A model generated the notes under the pieces. That model was not told the origin of the DNA, did no database searches, and saw only the letters and a list, made by a program, of their open reading frames with translations. A stretch of 64,000 bases of DNA. It comes from an uncultured Acidobacteriaceae bacterium. Its GTDB lineage: Bacteria > Acidobacteriota > Terriglobia > Terriglobales > Acidobacteriaceae. Shown here piece by piece: positions 4,280 to 51,556 of the stretch (positions are counted from its first letter, which is position 1; each line of letters starts with the position of its first letter). The DNA lies in NCBI GenBank assembly GCA_963838425.1, contig CAWIRH010000012.1, positions 26,955 through 90,954 on the forward strand, in the 5' to 3' direction. Made by a program: the position numbers and the translations under genes.

Positions 4280-4712
4280 AAACTTTGTGGCAGCCGGACC
4301 TGTAAGCCGAATTCTGTCTGCCGTTACCGGCAGGACGGTCATTCCTCTGGGCCACGCATTGCTGCTAGGCTCAAGCGACCTACCCGGAGGTTGTGGCGCA
4401 CCGAGCCGGCACGCGTCCCCGGCAAAGCCCGAAGGCTTGCCAGAGAATCCCTCCCTATTTGGTCTTGCTCCGTGTGGGGTTTGCCCTGCCCGCCGCATTA
4501 CTGCGACGGCGGTGCGCTCTTACCGCACCTTTTCACCCTTACCTGAGCCTTGCGGCCCGGGCGGTATGTTTTCTGTGGCACTTTCCGTCGAGCGATCCCG
4601 CCCTTACAAGCGCGGGGGCCCTCCCGGACGTTATCCGGCACACTGCTCTGCGGAGTTCGGACTTTCCTCTGTCTCGCGACAGCGACCGTCCGGTCCGGCT
4701 GCCAACAGCTTC
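4280..4712 (-). ncRNA. rnpB: RNase P RNA, bacterial type A
   Basis: The reverse complement reads GAAGCUGUUGGCAGCCGGACC...GAGGAAAGUCCGAACUCCGCAGAGCAGUGUGCCGGAUAACGUCCGGGAGG...GUGCCACAGAAAACAUACCGCC...CAGGUAAGGGUGAAAAGGUGCGGUAAGAGCGCACC...GGGUAGGUCGCUUGAGCC...ACAGAAUUCGGCUUACAGGUCCGGCUGCCA. These are the universally conserved P4/J-region blocks, with P1 pairing between the two ends. End coordinates are good to a few nt. Confidence 0.93.
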
Positions 4713-42814: not shown

Positions 42815-42891
42815 TGGTCGGGACGGCGAGATTTGAACTCGCGACCCCTTGCACCCCAAGCAAGTGCGCTACCAGGCTGCGCTACGTCCCG
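42815..42891 (-). tRNA. tRNA-Pro (anticodon GGG), CCA encoded
   Basis: The reverse complement is CGGGACGTAGCGCAGCCTGGTAGCGCACTTGCTTGGGGTGCAAGGGGTCGCGAGTTCAAATCTCGCCGTCCCGACCA. All four cloverleaf stems pair, and the anticodon loop is TTGGGGT. Confidence 0.93.
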
Positions 42892-45704: not shown

Positions 45705-45769
45705 GGGCTAGTCTTTTGTTGGATCGATCAGTGGCCATCAGTATAGCAATGGGGAAGGGACTGCCGGCG

Positions 45770-46942
45770 ATGAGTCGAGTAAGAATCTGTCGAGTGAAAT
45801 TGGGGGTCGCAACCCTATTATTGGCTGGTCTTGTGGCAGGTTGCGCGATGGCGCAGACTGGCGCGGCCGCGAGCGCCAAAGCTTCGCTGGCATTCTCGCG
45901 GGCGGAAAAGTTGAAGCGGGGAATCAACGCCAGTGAGTGGTTCGCGCAGGTGTATGACAAGCGCGGCTACACGCCGGAACATTTTCAGGCGTGGACGACG
46001 GCCGAGGATATCGCGCTGATCAAGTCGATGGGCTTCGATCACGTGCGGTTGAGCGTAAATCCGCAGCCGATGTTTACGGCGGGCGAGCCGAACAAAATTC
46101 CAGCGGAATACCTGGGCCATCTGGATGCGGCGGTGAAGATGATTCTCGACCACGGGCTGGCGGTTGTGATCGATCTGCATCCGGAGAGCGACTTCAAGGC
46201 GCGTTTGGCGAAGGATGATGATTTTGTCGAGCGGTTTGCCGACTTCTGGCGAGCGCTGGCCGCGCATTACTCGGCATTGGATTGGATGCGGACCGCGTGT
46301 TTCTGGAAATTCTGAATGAGCCGGAGTTCACCGACCGCTATCGCTGGCTGGGTGTGCAAGCGAAGCTGGCGGCGGCGATCCGGGAGGGCGCGCCAGCGAC
46401 ACACGATCATCGCGGCGGGCGCGCGCTGGTCGAATGACGACGAGCTGGTCTTCCAGGAACCGCTGCGCGATCCGAATATCATTTACAACTTTCACTTTTA
46501 TGAGCCGTACATCTTCACGCATCAGGGCGCGACTTGGAGCGCGTATTACTGGCACTGGCTGCGGGGCGTGAGATATCCGTCGACGGCGGAGTCGGCGGAG
46601 CGCGCGGCGGCGCTGGCGCCAAGTGAAGTGGACCGGTTGCAGGTGATCCGCTATGGGCGCGAGCACTGGGACGCCGCACGGATTGAATCCGAAATGAAGC
46701 AGGCAGCGGAGTGGGCGCGGCGGCGCGGGGTTCCGCTGGTGTGCAACGAGTTTGGCGTATATCGAGAGTATTCCGATCCCGAGGACCGCGCCGCGTGGTT
46801 GCACGATGTAAGAACCGCTCTCGAGCGCAACGGGATTGGGTGGGCGATGTGGGACTACTCGGGATCATTTGGCGTGGTCACGAAGAAAGATGGGAAGGCG
46901 GTGGTGGATGAGGGCGTGCTGCGGGCGCTGGGGATGAAGTGA
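45770..46942 (+). pseudogene. Glycoside hydrolase family 5 (cellulase-like) lipoprotein, disrupted by +5 and +1 indels
   Basis: LVAGC lipobox. The catalytic VFLEILNEPEF block is encoded in frame 1 between a TGGAT-TGGAT duplication (46278..46287) and an extra base near 46399. Frame 2 is used on both sides, and the second catalytic region is PLVCNEFG. Confidence 0.8.
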
Positions 46943-46963
46943 GGTAATGCAGACCAGCCGGGA

Positions 46964-47392
46964 TTAGGAATTCAGAAGCGCCCTGAGTCTGTTGGCAAGA
47001 AGCAACATCTCCTGCAAATCCGCTTCCAGCGATTCGGCACTGGAGATGGGCATGGCGCCGTATCCGCGGATTCGGACGGGCCGGCTGTCCTCCAAAGCCA
47101 CCCATATCTGGGATACGTCCGCTGCCAGGATGCGACGGAGGTTTTTCTTTGAGGGCTGGAGATCATACTTTCGCACAAAAGAAGCGATGAGCGCCTGAAG
47201 TTGAAGCAGACTCGCCCTGGCCTGTTCACTTTCACTTTCAGTAACGGAGCCCTCGATGACCTTCATTGCGGTTGGCGAATTCCGGTCCTCCAAGAGATCG
47301 AGTATACGAACGGCTGCGGCATCGACCACCAGCATGCCGCTCGCGATGACTCTACGATGATTGTCAGTGAGCCCATCATCCATGAGTGGCAC
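46964..47392 (-). CDS. Hypothetical 142-aa protein, third gene of the dynamin-AAA operon
   Basis: Overlaps the upstream gene by 17 nt. I recognise no motif. Confidence 0.55.
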   Translation of the reverse strand: MPLMDDGLTDNHRRVIASGMLVVDAAAVRILDLLEDRNSPTAMKVIEGSVTESESEQARASLLQLQALIASFVRKYDLQPSKKNLRRILAADVSQIWVALEDSRPVRIRGYGAMPISSAESLEADLQEMLLLANRLRALLNS

Positions 47393-48122
47393 CCCACCTC
47401 AGCCTGAAGTCTATGTACAGGGGAGAAAGCTTGACGTGCTGCCCGGTAACGTATTTCGGACTGGCTGCCATTTCGAGCATGGCGAGAATCGCGCCGGGAT
47501 TTCCCTTGCTGTAGTGAACGAATTTCTGAATCGCTTCGTCCTGATTTGCGGCGTTTAGGTGCATCTCTTGTGCGGTTCGCACGGCGAACCCTCTTGCCGT
47601 ATGCGAATCGAAATTCCGCAGGGCATACTTGTCGGAACGATCGGAGAACATCGGCAACAAGAACCCGACGTCTTCCATGTGCGCGGAGCGGGCAACCGCA
47701 ATGAGCGGGGTTGCCGTCCAATTGCACACATCCTTCAGTGAGGCAGCAAACGACTGGGACGGAGATTTCAGGTGGTCGAGCACAATCCAATGGCTGGCTT
47801 CACGCAAAGCACCTGTGACGATCCCCCGGATAGAGACGGCGGACTTGTCATTGATGGCGTTCAGACCACGAGTCCCACAGGCTTGGAGGACGCGGCGATT
47901 CTTTCTTGCAAACAGTCCAGCCGCAAGCTTCCGAAAAACAGCTTGGTTGCTGGAAGATTCGTCGCAATACACCATCTCGGGTACTTCGACTGCCAGTTGT
48001 TTCAGGAGCAGTGTTTTGCCAACCCCAGCGGGACCGTGAAGCAGGAAGGAACGACGACGAGACACCAATTGCCGGAGTTGCTCAAACTCAGCATCTCTTC
48101 CATAGATGGCGGTCGGACTCAT
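47376..48122 (-). CDS. AAA+ ATPase (Cdc6/ORC-like P-loop NTPase)
   Basis: Walker A LLHGPAGVGKTLL and Walker B HWIVLDHL. ATGA overlap with the dynamin-like gene. Confidence 0.7.
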   Translation of the reverse strand: MSPTAIYGRDAEFEQLRQLVSRRRSFLLHGPAGVGKTLLLKQLAVEVPEMVYCDESSSNQAVFRKLAAGLFARKNRRVLQACGTRGLNAINDKSAVSIRGIVTGALREASHWIVLDHLKSPSQSFAASLKDVCNWTATPLIAVARSAHMEDVGFLLPMFSDRSDKYALRNFDSHTARGFAVRTAQEMHLNAANQDEAIQKFVHYSKGNPGAILAMLEMAASPKYVTGQHVKLSPLYIDFRLRWGATHG

Positions 48123-50065
48123 GAATGCCCCAGATGAGAAGTTTCGGCTCCGCTTAGGCGAGCGAGTTCAGCCTCTATGCCCGACAGTTTTTTTAATGAC
48201 GATTCAACGGACGGGGCACCGGCTGCGTGGGCAGCGCGTGCGCGAGCCAGCGCCCGCTCCGCGACCGCGCTCAGTTCACGCAGCACGGCGCGTATCTCGG
48301 CTTCGAGAGAACGGCGGCTCCTGGTTACGCGTTCCTCAAGATCGTTGCGCACGCGCTCGCTGTTGGTCTCCAAGAGAAGATCGAGAAAATCGTGGGCGGC
48401 GGCATCAATCACCGAGTGCGCCCGAATAGCGCCGAGCATTAGGTCGGCAACGTAGCGCACAGGGGAAGCCGGAATGGCCAAAACGATGTACTCGTAGAAT
48501 TGAAACTCAGAGCGAGTTCGGAAATCCTGTTCAGCATTCAACTCTTTTGGCAAGTACTCCAGTTCGGTGGTTCGGACGCCACGCGTCTTGGACAAGAAGT
48601 CAGTTGTCAAATCAGTGAATCTCTTTGCTATCTTGCGGTACGCTTCCTCTCCTTTTGTTTTCTCGGTTTCCAACCACGGCATCGTGTGATTCCGAGCCAC
48701 GTCTTGAGCCGCCCGCATGGCAGATCGCCGATACCGAGGTCCGTTAGTTCGCGGCAGTGACTCCAGGGCCGAACCAAGTTCGTGGTGCGCCACCTCTCGC
48801 ACGGACTTGAGGAAGAAATCCCGGTGATCGCCAAACGTCTTTGACAGGCGCTGTTGTTCGCCGGAGAACAGGTATCCGAGGTCATTCAGGGACTGCTCAG
48901 CTTGCGACACTATCTCTCGTAGTTGGCTGATCCGCCTCTCAGACTCATCGAAAGGTCGAGTCAACGCGTCTCGCTCCTCCTTCACCACAACAAGGAGTTG
49001 ACTCGATAAACGTCGCACTGAACGATCCTCAGCATCGTGGACAAGTTTCCGGCCTGAACGCTGCACCAATTGTTCCAGCGCGTTTACCAGTAGCGCCCAA
49101 TCTCTCGGAGAACCACCGTTGTCGAGTTGTTCGAGGGCACTGATTTCGAAAATCGAACGGACAGGGCGCTGAAGCCGGCTTTCAAGCACCTGTCGGGCAA
49201 AAGAAACTGCCGCATCCCGGTCGGGCTTGGTGACGCGATCTGCCTTGTTCAAGACGAACAGGATGTCGGGAATTTCTTTTGCAACGCTCTCGACCAGCGC
49301 CAATTCGTCTCCGGCGATTGGAGGATCGGCACCGATCACGACGATAGCAGCGTCGATGTGCGGGAGAAATGCGTGTGTGGCAGCGGTGTTGCCCGCGAAC
49401 ACGGAGCCGAGCCCCGGCGTGTCCACAAAGCACATGCCCTGTGCCAGCAGCGGGCTGGGCACAAATACTTCCAACCCCGCGACTCCCTTGCTGTTCTCCG
49501 GGTTCCGTACTTCGGACACGTACTCCTCAATCGTGGCTATGGCAATGTCCGTCCATTCATCACTTTTTAGGCGAACACGTGCCCCGAGGGTTTCTCCGAA
49601 TCTCAATATCGTGGGGACAGCCGTGACCGGAACCACCCCACTGGGCAGGATGGGCTTACCCATCAAGGCGTTCAACAGGGTGGATTTGCCGCGTTTGAAC
49701 TGGCCGACGCAGGCTACGTAGAAACGCCCCTCCGCAATGCGCTCGGCGGCGGAACGGGCATCCTCCGTGATTTGATCGCTATTGAACTGCTCGGCTAGAC
49801 TCGCAATGCGAAGCAACTGGTTCGCTTCTACGCCAACAACGCCGCATGAACCCAAGTCGTGCCGAGAACCAGAGGCTCGCAACTCGCCGGATACCGCGAG
49901 GCGCTCCGTATCGCTGGTGCGACGGTCTGGTGTCCGGCGATCTGAACTCATTGCTCTGCCCGAACTTCCTCTTGGCGCCGGGTGGCGCGCTCGTTGTACG
50001 GAGCCCGCTTTACGTCTTCCGTGTATTCCCCCCTCAGTCCAAACTGCCCTGCTCGATGACGACAT
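48119..50065 (-). CDS. Bacterial dynamin-like GTPase
   Basis: G1 GQFKRGKSTLLNAL, G3 FVDTPGLGS and G4 VLNKADRV, followed by about 350 aa of helical stalk. The start could be ATG 49951, since the 50065 start overlaps the DUF190 gene end. Confidence 0.75.
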   Translation of the reverse strand: MSSSSRAVWTEGGIHGRRKAGSVQRARHPAPRGSSGRAMSSDRRTPDRRTSDTERLAVSGELRASGSRHDLGSCGVVGVEANQLLRIASLAEQFNSDQITEDARSAAERIAEGRFYVACVGQFKRGKSTLLNALMGKPILPSGVVPVTAVPTILRFGETLGARVRLKSDEWTDIAIATIEEYVSEVRNPENSKGVAGLEVFVPSPLLAQGMCFVDTPGLGSVFAGNTAATHAFLPHIDAAIVVIGADPPIAGDELALVESVAKEIPDILFVLNKADRVTKPDRDAAVSFARQVLESRLQRPVRSIFEISALEQLDNGGSPRDWALLVNALEQLVQRSGRKLVHDAEDRSVRRLSSQLLVVVKEERDALTRPFDESERRISQLREIVSQAEQSLNDLGYLFSGEQQRLSKTFGDHRDFFLKSVREVAHHELGSALESLPRTNGPRYRRSAMRAAQDVARNHTMPWLETEKTKGEEAYRKIAKRFTDLTTDFLSKTRGVRTTELEYLPKELNAEQDFRTRSEFQFYEYIVLAIPASPVRYVADLMLGAIRAHSVIDAAAHDFLDLLLETNSERVRNDLEERVTRSRRSLEAEIRAVLRELSAVAERALARARAAHAAGAPSVESSLKKLSGIEAELARLSGAETSHLGHS

Positions 50066-50351
50066 TCTCGCGGACGATGAGGCGATGCGCGGCCATCTCT
50101 CGCAGCTTCGGGAGAACGCGGTTGACGTGCTCGTCGGTATCGACGAAGGAGATCACGACGGGCAGTTCGCCTCCGGCTTCGACGAGGTGCGCGGTGTGGA
50201 CGCGGCCTCGTCCGAGAAAGCCGGCGACGGCGTGGAAGGCGACGGCTCCGAAGACATTTTCCTCGCGCAGATATTTCAGGATTTCCAGATGCAGCGGGCG
50301 ATGATGCCAGGAATCGCCTTCGGTGAGATAGATGGTGACTTGAACGGCCAT
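50034..50351 (-). CDS. DUF190-domain protein (PII-like, fluoride-associated)
   Basis: MAVQVTIYLTEGDSWHHRPLHLEILKYLREENVFGAVAFHAVAGF. It is the typical partner of crcB. ATG at 50351. Confidence 0.8.
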   Translation of the reverse strand: MAVQVTIYLTEGDSWHHRPLHLEILKYLREENVFGAVAFHAVAGFLGRGRVHTAHLVEAGGELPVVISFVDTDEHVNRVLPKLREMAAHRLIVRENVVIEQGSLD

Positions 50352-50370
50352 AACGACGCTAACTCCTATT

Positions 50371-50766
50371 CTACAAACCCCGGGCAAGCGCGGCGCCAGC
50401 CAGAACGGCGGCGAGGCAGAGCGCGTTGCTGGCCACAATGTTGATGCCGGTCAGGAGCCATTGCCCCTGCTCCATCAGCGAAAAGCTTTCGAAGGCATAG
50501 CTGGAGAAAGTGGTGTAGGAACCGCAGAAGCCGATGGCGACCAGCAGGCGCCAGCGCGGGTCGAGCAGAGCGCGTTCGGTCGAAAACACGAGAAAAAATC
50601 CGAGGACGAGGCTGCCGGTGATGTTGATCAGCAGCGTGCCATAGGGGAACGCGGAGGAGAAGTCGCGGGCGATTAGAGTGCTGAGGAAGTAGCGGGCGCT
50701 GGCTCCAACCACGGCGCCGAGCGCGATCCATAGATAGTTGAAAAGATAGTTGGCGTGACAGTTCAC
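50371..50766 (-). CDS. crcB: Fluoride ion channel CrcB/FluC
   Basis: Contains LWIALGAVVGASARYFLS...YGTLLINITGSLVLGF...GFCGSYTTFS. I prefer GTG 50766 (AGGAG 9 nt upstream), because ATG 50802 lies inside the riboswitch. Confidence 0.85.
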   Translation of the reverse strand: MNCHANYLFNYLWIALGAVVGASARYFLSTLIARDFSSAFPYGTLLINITGSLVLGFFLVFSTERALLDPRWRLLVAIGFCGSYTTFSSYAFESFSLMEQGQWLLTGINIVASNALCLAAVLAGAALARGL

Positions 50767-50791
50767 GATGGAGTACTCCTGCAAAAGTTCT

Positions 50792-50840
50792 GTAGGAGTC
50801 ATCAGCCGAACGGGCGGTTAACGGCGAACTCCATCGCCAG
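50792..50840 (-). promoter_or_regulatory. Fluoride riboswitch (crcB RNA motif)
   Basis: The minus strand reads CUGGCGAUGGAGUUCGCCGUUAACCGCCCGUUCGGCUGAUGACUCCUAC. This matches the conserved GGCGAUGGnGUUCGCC...AAC...GCUGAUGAUUCCUAC pattern. A TATACT -10-like box lies just upstream. Confidence 0.85.
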
Positions 50841-50876
50841 TGTCTTAGTATAACGCAGAAGCGGAAGGCGTTCCGC

Positions 50877-51308
50877 CTAGAAAGCTCCCAGCCAGCGGAC
50901 GGGGAAGCGGCTTCCAAGGGCGTTTACCAGGCGCTCGTCGGCGGTGATGAGTTCAGTCCCTGTGGCAGTGGCCATCGCTACATAAGTGCTGTCGTAAATG
51001 GTTCGGTCAAAATCGGTGGCGATTTTGAACGCATCTGGCAGAAAAGCTCGGCTCGGCAGAGTCGGGAAGTCCCGATTGAGCATCGCTTCGAGGGCGCGGC
51101 GCGCCAATGCCGATGTTATCGTGCCACGCTTCGCGGCTTTCCAAAGAAAGCTGCCGATCTCGAGCCAGAACAAATCCGGGACGACCACCTGGATTGTTCC
51201 ATCCACGTAAGCACGAAGAAAGCGGTCGGCGGGAGCGGCGAGAGGCTCGACGATCTCAGGTGACGCCCACTTGGCGCCGACGCTGGCGTCCACGACGAAA
51301 GTCTTCAC
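50877..51308 (-). CDS. vapC: PIN-domain type II toxin (VapC family)
   Basis: MKTFVVDASV...D...TADERL pattern of conserved acidic residues. 4-nt overlap with the upstream antitoxin gene. Confidence 0.8.
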   Translation of the reverse strand: MKTFVVDASVGAKWASPEIVEPLAAPADRFLRAYVDGTIQVVVPDLFWLEIGSFLWKAAKRGTITSALARRALEAMLNRDFPTLPSRAFLPDAFKIATDFDRTIYDSTYVAMATATGTELITADERLVNALGSRFPVRWLGAF

Positions 51309-51556
51309 CGCTCACGATCCTCGCGGATCATCTCTTCGGCAGAGGGGAAGGGACCTTTTCCGGAAGGCTGGTGGGAGCGGAGTTCCATCAAATCCTCATA
51401 GAACCGACGGCGTTGTTTCAGTTCCGCCGCGGTGGGCACGGCGTCCTTCAGCAGCGCGATGACCTCGGCGGCGATGGAGCTGCGCTTCTTGCGGGCGCGG
51501 GCGCGCAGGGCTTCGTAGAGGTCCCTGGGCACGTTTTCCACGTATAGGGTTGGCAT
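51305..51556 (-). CDS. RHH (Arc/FitA-like) type II antitoxin
   Basis: MPTLYVENVPRDLYEALRARARKKRSSIAAEVIALLKDAV. 83 aa. Confidence 0.75.
   Translation of the reverse strand: MPTLYVENVPRDLYEALRARARKKRSSIAAEVIALLKDAVPTAAELKQRRRFYEDLMELRSHQPSGKGPFPSAEEMIREDRER

Follow-up and report, generated by a model that had tools for sequence, protein, structure and literature searches.

A gene module for a dynamin-like protein, an AAA+ ATPase and a small protein downstream of fluoride riboswitches in Acidobacteriota

What could a dynamin-like protein (DLP), an AAA+ ATPase and a small protein without a known family be doing in one tightly packed set of genes? The question is raised by a stretch of 64,000 nucleotides (the window) from an uncultured Acidobacteriaceae bacterium (assembly GCA_963838425.1, contig CAWIRH010000012.1, positions 26,955 to 90,954), in which a preliminary description, made from the letters alone, pointed to three coupled open reading frames (ORFs) on the minus strand (48119..50065, 47376..48122 and 46964..47392) as a candidate NTPase conflict or membrane-remodelling system. 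The three ORFs are present, co-directional and overlapping, as seen both in the ORF list and in the sequence itself. On balance, we favour the explanation that they are the distal half of a single fluoride-responsive string, which consists of a promoter, a riboswitch, crcB, DUF190 and the genes for the DLP, the AAA+ ATPase and a 139-aa protein. Related loci are given L-numbers below (L001 etc.); L001 is a metagenome contig near-identical to the window.

The Rfam search (cmscan) identified one fluoride aptamer (RF01734) within the window, at 50786..50847 on the minus strand, with 63.8 bits (gathering score 34), an E-value of 2e-15 and the model matched in full (positions 1-64). Reading along the minus strand, the order is a TATACT box, the aptamer, a possible anti-Shine-Dalgarno hairpin, crcB, DUF190, a spacer of 82 nt, and then the DLP, AAA and small-protein genes. 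The TATACT box (50847..50852) resembles a -10 element, lies just upstream of the aptamer, and may serve as the promoter element of the string. The crcB gene (50371..50802, minus strand; PF02537 CRCB on the identical gene in L001) encodes a Fluc fluoride channel; since its called ATG at 50802 falls within the aptamer and an AGGAG box precedes the GTG at 50766, its real start is probably this GTG. In the putative expression platform (50764..50800, minus strand), the 3' pseudoknot strand of the aptamer, ACUCCU, can pair with the Shine-Dalgarno sequence AGGAGU found 9 nt before the GTG (50766..50764), which suggests a translational ON switch for crcB that acts by Shine-Dalgarno sequestration. DUF190 (50034..50351, minus strand; 105 aa, PII-like fold family, COG1993; PF02641 on the identical gene in L001) follows, with an AGGAG box upstream of its ATG at 50351. 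No terminator-like site beyond chance was found in 46500..51400. Because the aptamer lies upstream on the same strand and no terminator was seen, we consider crcB-DUF190 to be the head of the trio's own gene string; the riboswitch-controlled crcB-DUF190 pair had already been noticed beside the trio, but as a mere neighbour and not as the head of the same operon-like string.

The DLP gene occupies 48119..49951 on the minus strand (Dynamin_N GTPase, 610 aa), within a long ORF that extends to 50065. Its most likely start by sequence comparison is M39 of the long ORF (ATG 49951), because the gene is called this way in L001 and the same MSSD N-terminus is seen again in L003. The AAA+ gene (47376..48122, minus strand; AAA_16 ATPase, 248 aa, core and lid only) starts in an ATGA overlap with the DLP stop codon, which had been reported before and was checked in the sequence. 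The small-protein gene (46964..47383, minus strand, long ORF to 47392; all-helical, without family) was first read as 142 aa with a 17-nt overlap. Such an ORF exists, but the most likely start is ATG 47383, since nearly all homologs among the matches listed (202 found) are 139 aa; with this start the protein has 139 aa and overlaps the AAA gene by 8 nt, ATGGATGA. The homologs have uniform lengths (688 AAA homologs of 248 aa and the 202 small-protein homologs of 139 aa), which puts the trio far from a chance ORF pattern. Among the matches listed, AAA and small-protein homologs are 66-98% identical, and those bearing a taxon name are all Terriglobales/Acidobacteriia.

To collect loci, one genome per GTDB species was scanned with the AAA alignment, and the resulting 80 loci were annotated with custom profiles and a covariance model built from five Rfam-verified aptamers. 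All 80 are from metagenome-assembled genomes (MAGs) of Acidobacteriota (41-89% identity), many of them named bog, palsa or SPRUCE peat. The DLP gene adjoins the AAA gene in 74 of the 80 loci, a small-protein homolog is present in 74, crcB or DUF190 is in the string in 50, and a same-strand upstream aptamer is found in 74. The trio is thus syntenic as a unit elsewhere, a check that the preliminary description had proposed. Four of the six loci without an aptamer are on contigs truncated upstream, and the aptamer is undetected in just 2 of the 76 loci with adequate upstream sequence. When 14 loci were re-tested with the Rfam RF01734 model, the aptamer reached the gathering score in 13, as it also does in L001, L003, L004 and L006.

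The string comes in several versions. Some contigs have crcB-DUF190-DLP-AAA-small, and other genomes have a longer string with two fluoride aptamers, in which a Na+/H+ exchanger, an optional metallophosphoesterase and enolase are followed by crcB, a gene for a protein of no assigned family, a tandem DUF190, a single DUF190, and DLP-AAA-small. In L003 and L006, the DUF190, DLP and AAA genes are joined by 4-nt overlaps. The crcB/DUF190 subtype ahead of the close-clade module varies between genomes, and the gene order is mirrored between clades (DLP-AAA-small or small-AAA-DLP), always with AAA in the center. Across the clusters, the genes include those for the Na+/H+ exchanger, enolase, pyrophosphatase, metallophosphoesterase, CrcB and DUF190. 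Five MAGs contain the whole cluster twice, on separate contigs (L047/L048, L050/L052, L042/L068, L051/L071 and L077/L078).

The link to fluoride does not depend on crcB. In 34 of the 74 aptamer-bearing loci, the aptamer is followed first by a gene of the module, and crcB does not intervene: the small-protein gene in 13 loci (small-AAA-DLP; e.g. L040 and L049), a fused small::DLP gene in 13 (e.g. L048 and L051), the AAA gene in 5 (AAA-DLP or AAA-small; L038 with AAA-DLP, also L079 and L083) and the DLP gene in 3 (DLP-AAA-small; L012, L018 and L031). An independent contig of 65% GC has the aptamer followed by AAA_16 and the small-protein gene. In L071 (151-2558, minus strand) and L050 (206-2172), a divergent fluoride aptamer is followed by a pyrophosphatase gene (PF00719, 2e-54) and then by a third DLP gene (556 aa) with a 4-nt overlap. 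The linkage is kept through inversion, exchange of crcB/DUF190 subtypes and loss of crcB, which argues for selection for fluoride co-regulation, not hitch-hiking. We are confident that the module belongs to the fluoride regulon, and from these arrangements we infer that the DLP, AAA and small-protein genes would be induced in a fluoride-dependent manner.

Some further features of these clusters were observed along the way. Aptamers located right before module genes (L012:8130-8200, L049:9340-9380, and also L038) are followed by a strong hairpin, TGACTCC...GGAGTCA, of which the pseudoknot strand is a part and which has no U-tract. Between crcB and the tandem DUF190 there is often a protein of about 200 aa (L048:8236-8853, L006:4530-5123, L003:4725-5102 and many related loci) without a Pfam match; its conserved CPxC...CNFHAW...CxxC...LCxxH motifs suggest that it is probably zinc-binding. 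The tandem-domain DUF190 (about 244 aa; L003:5112-5846, with equivalents in about 40 loci) also matches the P-II nitrogen-regulator profile (6.8e-10). Each tandem DUF190 is followed by a single-domain DUF190 that has a 4-nt overlap with the next gene (DLP or AAA), an arrangement that hints at PII-like signalling as a further layer of the fluoride cluster.

Judged by profiles and motifs, the DLP is a genuine bacterial dynamin-like protein. It matches Pfam Dynamin_N (3e-26, 92.8 bits; cut-off 27) and contains the motifs G1 (GQFKRGKS, G83-S90), G3 (DTPG, D177-G180) and G4 (NKAD, N235-D238) that had been read from the window at the outset; G2 is probably T110. G1-G4 are at least 90% conserved across 87 DLPs of three types. 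The best relatives in PDB are IniA (3e-20), Campylobacter DLP2 (9e-18) and DLP1 (4e-10), and Nostoc BDLP (1e-14), with SynDLP and mitofusins as further ones; the IniA alignment covers residues 53-356 and so extends past the G domain. About 350 residues follow the G domain, with a probably helical C-terminal half and a conserved hydrophobic patch near residues 485-507. The match to NCBIfam CrfC is confined to the P-loop region (E 7e-7, 27.8 bits vs a cut-off of 1146). The window DLP is the ortholog of the AAA-adjacent DLP of the deep clade (50% identity over the full length); on such comparisons the deep-clade module is a heterotypic DLP pair plus AAA.

The second protein was described initially as having a Cdc6/ORC-like AAA+ pattern, and the structural comparison bears this out at the level of an AAA+ protein of the clamp-loader/ORC/STAND type. 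It matches Pfam AAA_16 (5e-11, 43.9 bits; cut-off 32.6) and also ATPase_2. Its AlphaFold2 model (predicted local distance difference test, pLDDT, 80) consists of the alpha/beta core and the lid and nothing more, and Foldseek relates it to clamp-loader delta, RFC, ORC/Cdc6, MuB, TnsC and NB-ARC (E 4e-5 to 1e-3, TM-score up to 0.64). Finer naming was tried and rejected, since the PDB sequence profile reaches the Walker A level only and the Foldseek matches are evenly spread over clamp-loader, ORC, MuB, TnsC and NB-ARC. No STAND sensor, effector or DNA-binding domain was found on the protein, which ends after the lid at residue 248, and its Pfam matches to nSTAND6, nSTAND5, nSTAND3, nSTAND1 and NACHT are all below the cut-offs.

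Both nucleotide-binding motifs noted before (Walker A GPAGVGKT and Walker B WIVLDH) were found. Walker A, with K36, is conserved in all 81 copies; the Walker B motif, hhhhD116-H117, is invariant in 24 aligned sequences, and its DHL is at least 90% conserved in the 81 copies (conservation was taken from the 81 copies, and exact strings from the 24-sequence alignment). The catalytic Glu of a canonical Walker B (hhhhDE) is not present. Family-specific motifs include RSAHMED, D161-R162, SKGNPGA (a delta-prime-like lid motif) and the C-terminal KLSPLYIDFRL; by our own reading, D161-R162 may be at the position of the clamp-loader SRC arginine finger. As Walker A is intact and Walker B is of the D-H form, the protein is probably a slow switch and not a motor. 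It resembles a nucleotide switch or an assembly factor more than an unfoldase, and the motifs suggest slow or non-canonical hydrolysis. Weak Hda and CrfC matches led us to consider the KLSPLYIDF tail as a beta-clamp-binding motif, but it misfits the QL[SD]LF/QLxLxL consensus, has no other support, and was rejected.

For the third protein, in which no motif had been recognized, the searches against Pfam, NCBIfam and PADLOC and the PDB profile search likewise gave no match. It has an invariant R(I/M)RGYG motif, and its AlphaFold2 model is all-helical with low confidence (pLDDT 57). A non-iterated profile, for which standalone homologs of the deep clade (about 155-200 aa) and no others were used, aligns with the window-type proteins of 139 aa from one end to the other (1e-5 to 1e-8), and it also matches residues 2-152 of DLPs of about 687 aa (1e-70 to 1e-80), in which Pfam Dynamin_N is located at residues 200-357. 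From these matches, the small protein is a domain that occurs either free or as an N-terminal extension of a DLP. The fused deep-clade DLP is a paralog of the window DLP (30% identity, G domain only).

The wider small-protein family, collected by an exhaustive profile search, has 338 clusters at 50% identity (mostly 133-155 aa). A fluoride link for all of its distant members was ruled out, as those in L089, L090, L091 and L093 have unrelated neighbours. Another lineage is represented by L087 (131-6829; a metagenome contig with 41% GC), which has Usp, a small-protein homolog (133 aa), MFS, a DLP, a MutS_III/MutS_V ATPase, a 74-aa ORF, crcB and DUF190, in this order. Its DLP belongs to the subfamily of the window DLP (phmmer 1.6e-44), and the MutS-type ATPase occupies the place of the AAA+ protein. 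Given these mixed contexts, the fluoride/DLP link extends over the Acidobacterial branch and one further lineage at least, but does not cover the superfamily as a whole.

How might such a module work? In the mechanism that we propose, hydrogen fluoride (HF) entering at low peat pH would raise cytoplasmic fluoride, which would turn the aptamer on, and the whole string would be expressed more. The DLP, the AAA+ protein and the small protein would then form one machine. This proposal draws on the translational coupling and the always central position of the AAA gene; the small protein, which is fused elsewhere to the N-terminus of a paralogous DLP, would be a detachable DLP accessory domain. We put joint action of the three in one complex at somewhat better than even odds. 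In the most speculative step, the DLP GTPase would bind, remodel or seal the cytoplasmic membrane, by analogy with the stress-induced IniA and DynA, and would limit the leak of HF/H+ or the damage while CrcB exports F-, with the AAA+ protein gating DLP assembly or disassembly. Membrane remodelling was one of the two functions offered by the preliminary description, and it is still our best functional guess by analogy, now placed in the context of fluoride stress; membrane maintenance under HF/F- stress as the output is nevertheless a tentative suggestion.

Several observations weigh against this proposal. For the window locus, the weakest link is control of the distal genes: the gap between DUF190 and the DLP gene is 82 nt, and the riboswitch looks crcB-translational, so any fluoride control further downstream would be indirect, and control of genes 3-5 positions downstream would need putative polarity or mRNA-stability effects. 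No transmembrane (TM) helix is predicted in the DLP (maximum KD19 1.4), which leaves membrane binding putative, and we know of no mechanism of fluoride toxicity that needs membrane remodelling. The model of the small protein is of low confidence, as given above, and its distant relatives in L089, L090, L091 and L093 are found without a DLP or fluoride gene. In L087, the small-MFS-DLP-MutS genes are upstream of a sub-threshold aptamer-like match only (20.7 bits), which lies before crcB.

The crcB-only appearance of the riboswitch and the 82-nt spacer would also be expected if the trio had a housekeeping role unrelated to fluoride and was downstream of crcB by chance, as would the distant small-protein homologs in unrelated contexts. 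Such hitch-hiking is nevertheless very improbable in our estimate: the linkage outlasts inversion, crcB/DUF190 subtype swaps and crcB removal, the aptamer is right before a module gene in 34 loci and goes undetected in very few loci with adequate upstream sequence, and fluoride aptamers are rare, judging by the single one in 64 kb. We give equally little credence to an anti-phage or conflict system, i.e. an Eleos/LeoABC-like dynamin module with a novel AAA+ partner in an accessory island, which is the other function that had been suggested. DLPs of the DynA and LeoA type have reported roles in defence, and PADLOC gives weak matches of the DLP to LeoA (6.9e-11, 39.9 bits, partial) and LeoBC (4e-4, 17.6 bits); the operon has a PIN/RHH toxin-antitoxin pair close by on its upstream side and the disrupted GH5 gene on its downstream side. 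However, the AAA and small proteins fit no PADLOC model beyond P-loop noise, and we rejected a defence-system assignment because PADLOC gave a cross-family LeoA match only. A mobile origin was rejected since no relatives of the AAA protein were found on 2.9 million viral contigs or 72,556 plasmids. The module is confined to one order-level bacterial lineage, in which lengths are uniform and identities are 41-98%, a pattern that fits vertical descent, and its invariant neighbours are the fluoride riboswitch and fluoride-regulon genes, not defence genes. The toxin-antitoxin pair was seen only in the window and L001, the loci examined for it. Composition is ordinary as well: the lower G+C that had been noted by eye is a marginal dip (0.570 in the trio; the mean of the window is 0.590 with an sd of 0.015, which puts the trio within 1.4 sd and at the 9th percentile among windows of its size), and the G+C at third codon positions (GC3) is 0.61-0.63 vs 0.68 +/- 0.064 for 39 window ORFs, about 1 sd below. 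As both are inside the normal spread of the window, a compositional island was rejected, and with it the accessory-island context of the preliminary description.

Two other explanations keep the module in the fluoride response and differ in what it does there. It could be a signalling DLP system, in which a soluble DLP and its partners regulate another protein by their nucleotide state; the module would still be fluoride-induced, and it might act on CrcB/Fluc, on the PII-like DUF190 proteins, on the Na+/H+ exchanger or on an MFS transporter. There is a precedent in RdcA: this dynamin-like GTPase is soluble, depends on a non-GTPase partner (RdcB) and acts by protein-protein contact (PMC6510439). 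The absence of a TM segment from the window DLP, the D-H Walker B (typical of a switch, not a motor), the tight arrangement against DUF190 genes with 4-nt overlaps, and an MFS transporter that recurs beside the module (L003, L025, L050 and L087) all fit this view. We nevertheless regard it as unlikely, as the solved structures nearest to the DLP belong to the membrane-active IniA, Cj-DLP1/2 and BDLP and not to RdcA/CrfC, and many loci have the riboswitch and module but no crcB, DUF190 or transporter in the string. More doubtful still is compensation or decoy, in which extra or fluoride-tolerant copies of a DLP and an ATPase are provided, just as additional enolase and pyrophosphatase serve to out-titrate inhibition, or the proteins are sinks or sensors for the fluoride complexes (MgF3-, AlF4-) that trap NDP-bound NTPases. 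Structural work has described the trapping of dynamin-family G domains by metal-fluoride/NDP complexes. Up to three DLP genes are found behind fluoride aptamers in one genome region, one of them coupled to pyrophosphatase, and in another lineage a MutS-type ATPase replaces the AAA+ protein beside the DLP; overproduction of inhibited enzymes, enolase and pyrophosphatase, is a documented part of the regulon (PMC11139923). But a housekeeping DLP needing backup in the carrier genomes is unsupported, no sequence feature of fluoride tolerance was identified, and the conserved small protein and the strict three-gene coupling are left unexplained.

The module can be set beside several known systems. 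The fluoride riboswitch (RF01734) regulon is similar in that the aptamer scores above gathering upstream on the same strand, and crcB, the Na+/H+ exchanger, enolase, pyrophosphatase and phosphoesterase are among the gene classes in PMC11139923. A 2024 review of fluoride resistance lists exporters, Na+/H+ antiporters, pyrophosphatase, HAD phosphatases, enolase and formate hydrogen lyase, and mentions neither dynamin nor GTPase (PMC11139923). In contrast to what is known of the regulon, the DLP, AAA_16 ATPase and helical small protein were not found among riboswitch-associated genes in the literature searched, and a full-text literature search found no paper linking fluoride riboswitches with dynamins, nor, among the papers listed, one that brings together fluoride, crcB and dynamin-like proteins.

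Among DLP systems, the mycobacterial iniBAC operon is comparable in being stress-inducible, as we propose for the module, and in having a small partner that is not a GTPase. No protein in PDB matches the window DLP better than IniA, and two DLPs per cluster, as with IniA/IniC, are found in the deep clade. There is also a functional tie between iniBAC and an AAA+ domain of the SSO1545/ATPase_2 type (IniR, PMC5760070), and the window AAA+ protein matches ATPase_2 and AAA_16. IniR is the nearest precedent for an AAA+ protein tied to a DLP operon, but it is an 818-aa STAND-type transcription factor with a MalT-like sensor and a DNA-binding domain (PMC5760070), whereas the window protein has 248 aa, consists of core and lid without a DNA-binding domain, and is translationally coupled within the operon. 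The inducers also differ (cell-wall drugs or trehalose for iniBAC, and, as we propose, fluoride through a riboswitch here), and the small protein has no detected similarity to known families (IniB itself was outside the comparison). DynA of Bacillus subtilis, BDLP and Cj-DLP1/2 have a Dynamin_N G domain with G1-G4, and probably a long helical stalk, in common with the window DLP, and heterotypic DLP pairs in common with the deep clade; these systems are GTPases only, without an AAA+ partner or riboswitch control, and no TM or paddle hairpin is predicted in the window DLP. Eleos/LeoABC shares the dynamin fold and the weak partial LeoA profile match, but the window module has no LeoBC-type partner, its AAA+ and small proteins are unmatched, and its context is one of fluoride genes. 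The E. coli pair RdcA (YjdA/CrfC) and RdcB (YjcZ) combines a DLP with an operon-encoded non-GTPase accessory protein of unknown fold (PMC6510439), but the similarity to CrfC is in the P-loop region only, and the RdcA system has no AAA+ protein and is in the flagellar regulon. The combination of dynamin, AAA+ and small protein had been called undescribed, and it is neither in PADLOC nor found in the literature; its pairing with a fluoride riboswitch has apparently not been described before either.

Taken as a whole, a riboswitch-induced DLP machine with an AAA+ switch and a detachable N-terminal accessory domain, which protects or reorganizes the membrane or senses metal-fluoride-trapped NTPases in HF/F- stress, would be an unrecognised arm of fluoride resistance in acid-soil bacteria, and we put the chance of this slightly below even. 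If it is true, a bacterial DLP would for the first time have a defined small-molecule inducer, and a DLP system an AAA+ core partner. Bacterial DLPs are widespread, and for most of them the physiological trigger and partners are not known; here DLP function is directly testable, with a defined inducer (fluoride), two obligate-looking partners, and a natural fusion pointing to contacts. The known fluoride responses are export, pH/ion homeostasis and overproduction of inhibited enzymes, to which a membrane-remodelling or NTPase-switch module would add a category. The module may help explain how acidophilic peat Acidobacteria cope with the accumulation of the weak acid HF, and it is relevant to the engineering of hosts that tolerate fluoride while degrading organofluorines, for which PMC11139923 states a need.

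Other features of the window and of the related loci are as follows. A GH5 cellulase gene (45716-46942, plus strand) is convergent with the end of the operon, with a gap of 21 nt. It is disrupted, as had been noted: two ORFs abutting at 46315/46316 separately cover positions 21-117 and 160-269 of the Pfam Cellulase profile, and the split is either a frameshifted pseudogene or a sequencing error. Of the two toxin-antitoxin modules reported nearby, the analysis covered one, which is present at 50877..51556 on the minus strand, directly upstream of the riboswitch promoter; it consists of a PIN-domain toxin (143 aa) and a FitA-like RHH antitoxin (83 aa) with a 4-nt overlap. The window also contains the RNase P RNA (bacterial class A; 4287-4701, minus strand, 289.8 bits) and a tRNA (42818-42891, minus strand), housekeeping RNAs that make it look like ordinary chromosome. 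Elsewhere, matches to the small RNA Acido-Lenti-1 are found a few kb downstream of the module (L018:13408-13453 and L066:14418-14464), and a group II intron is located at L057:17140-17427.

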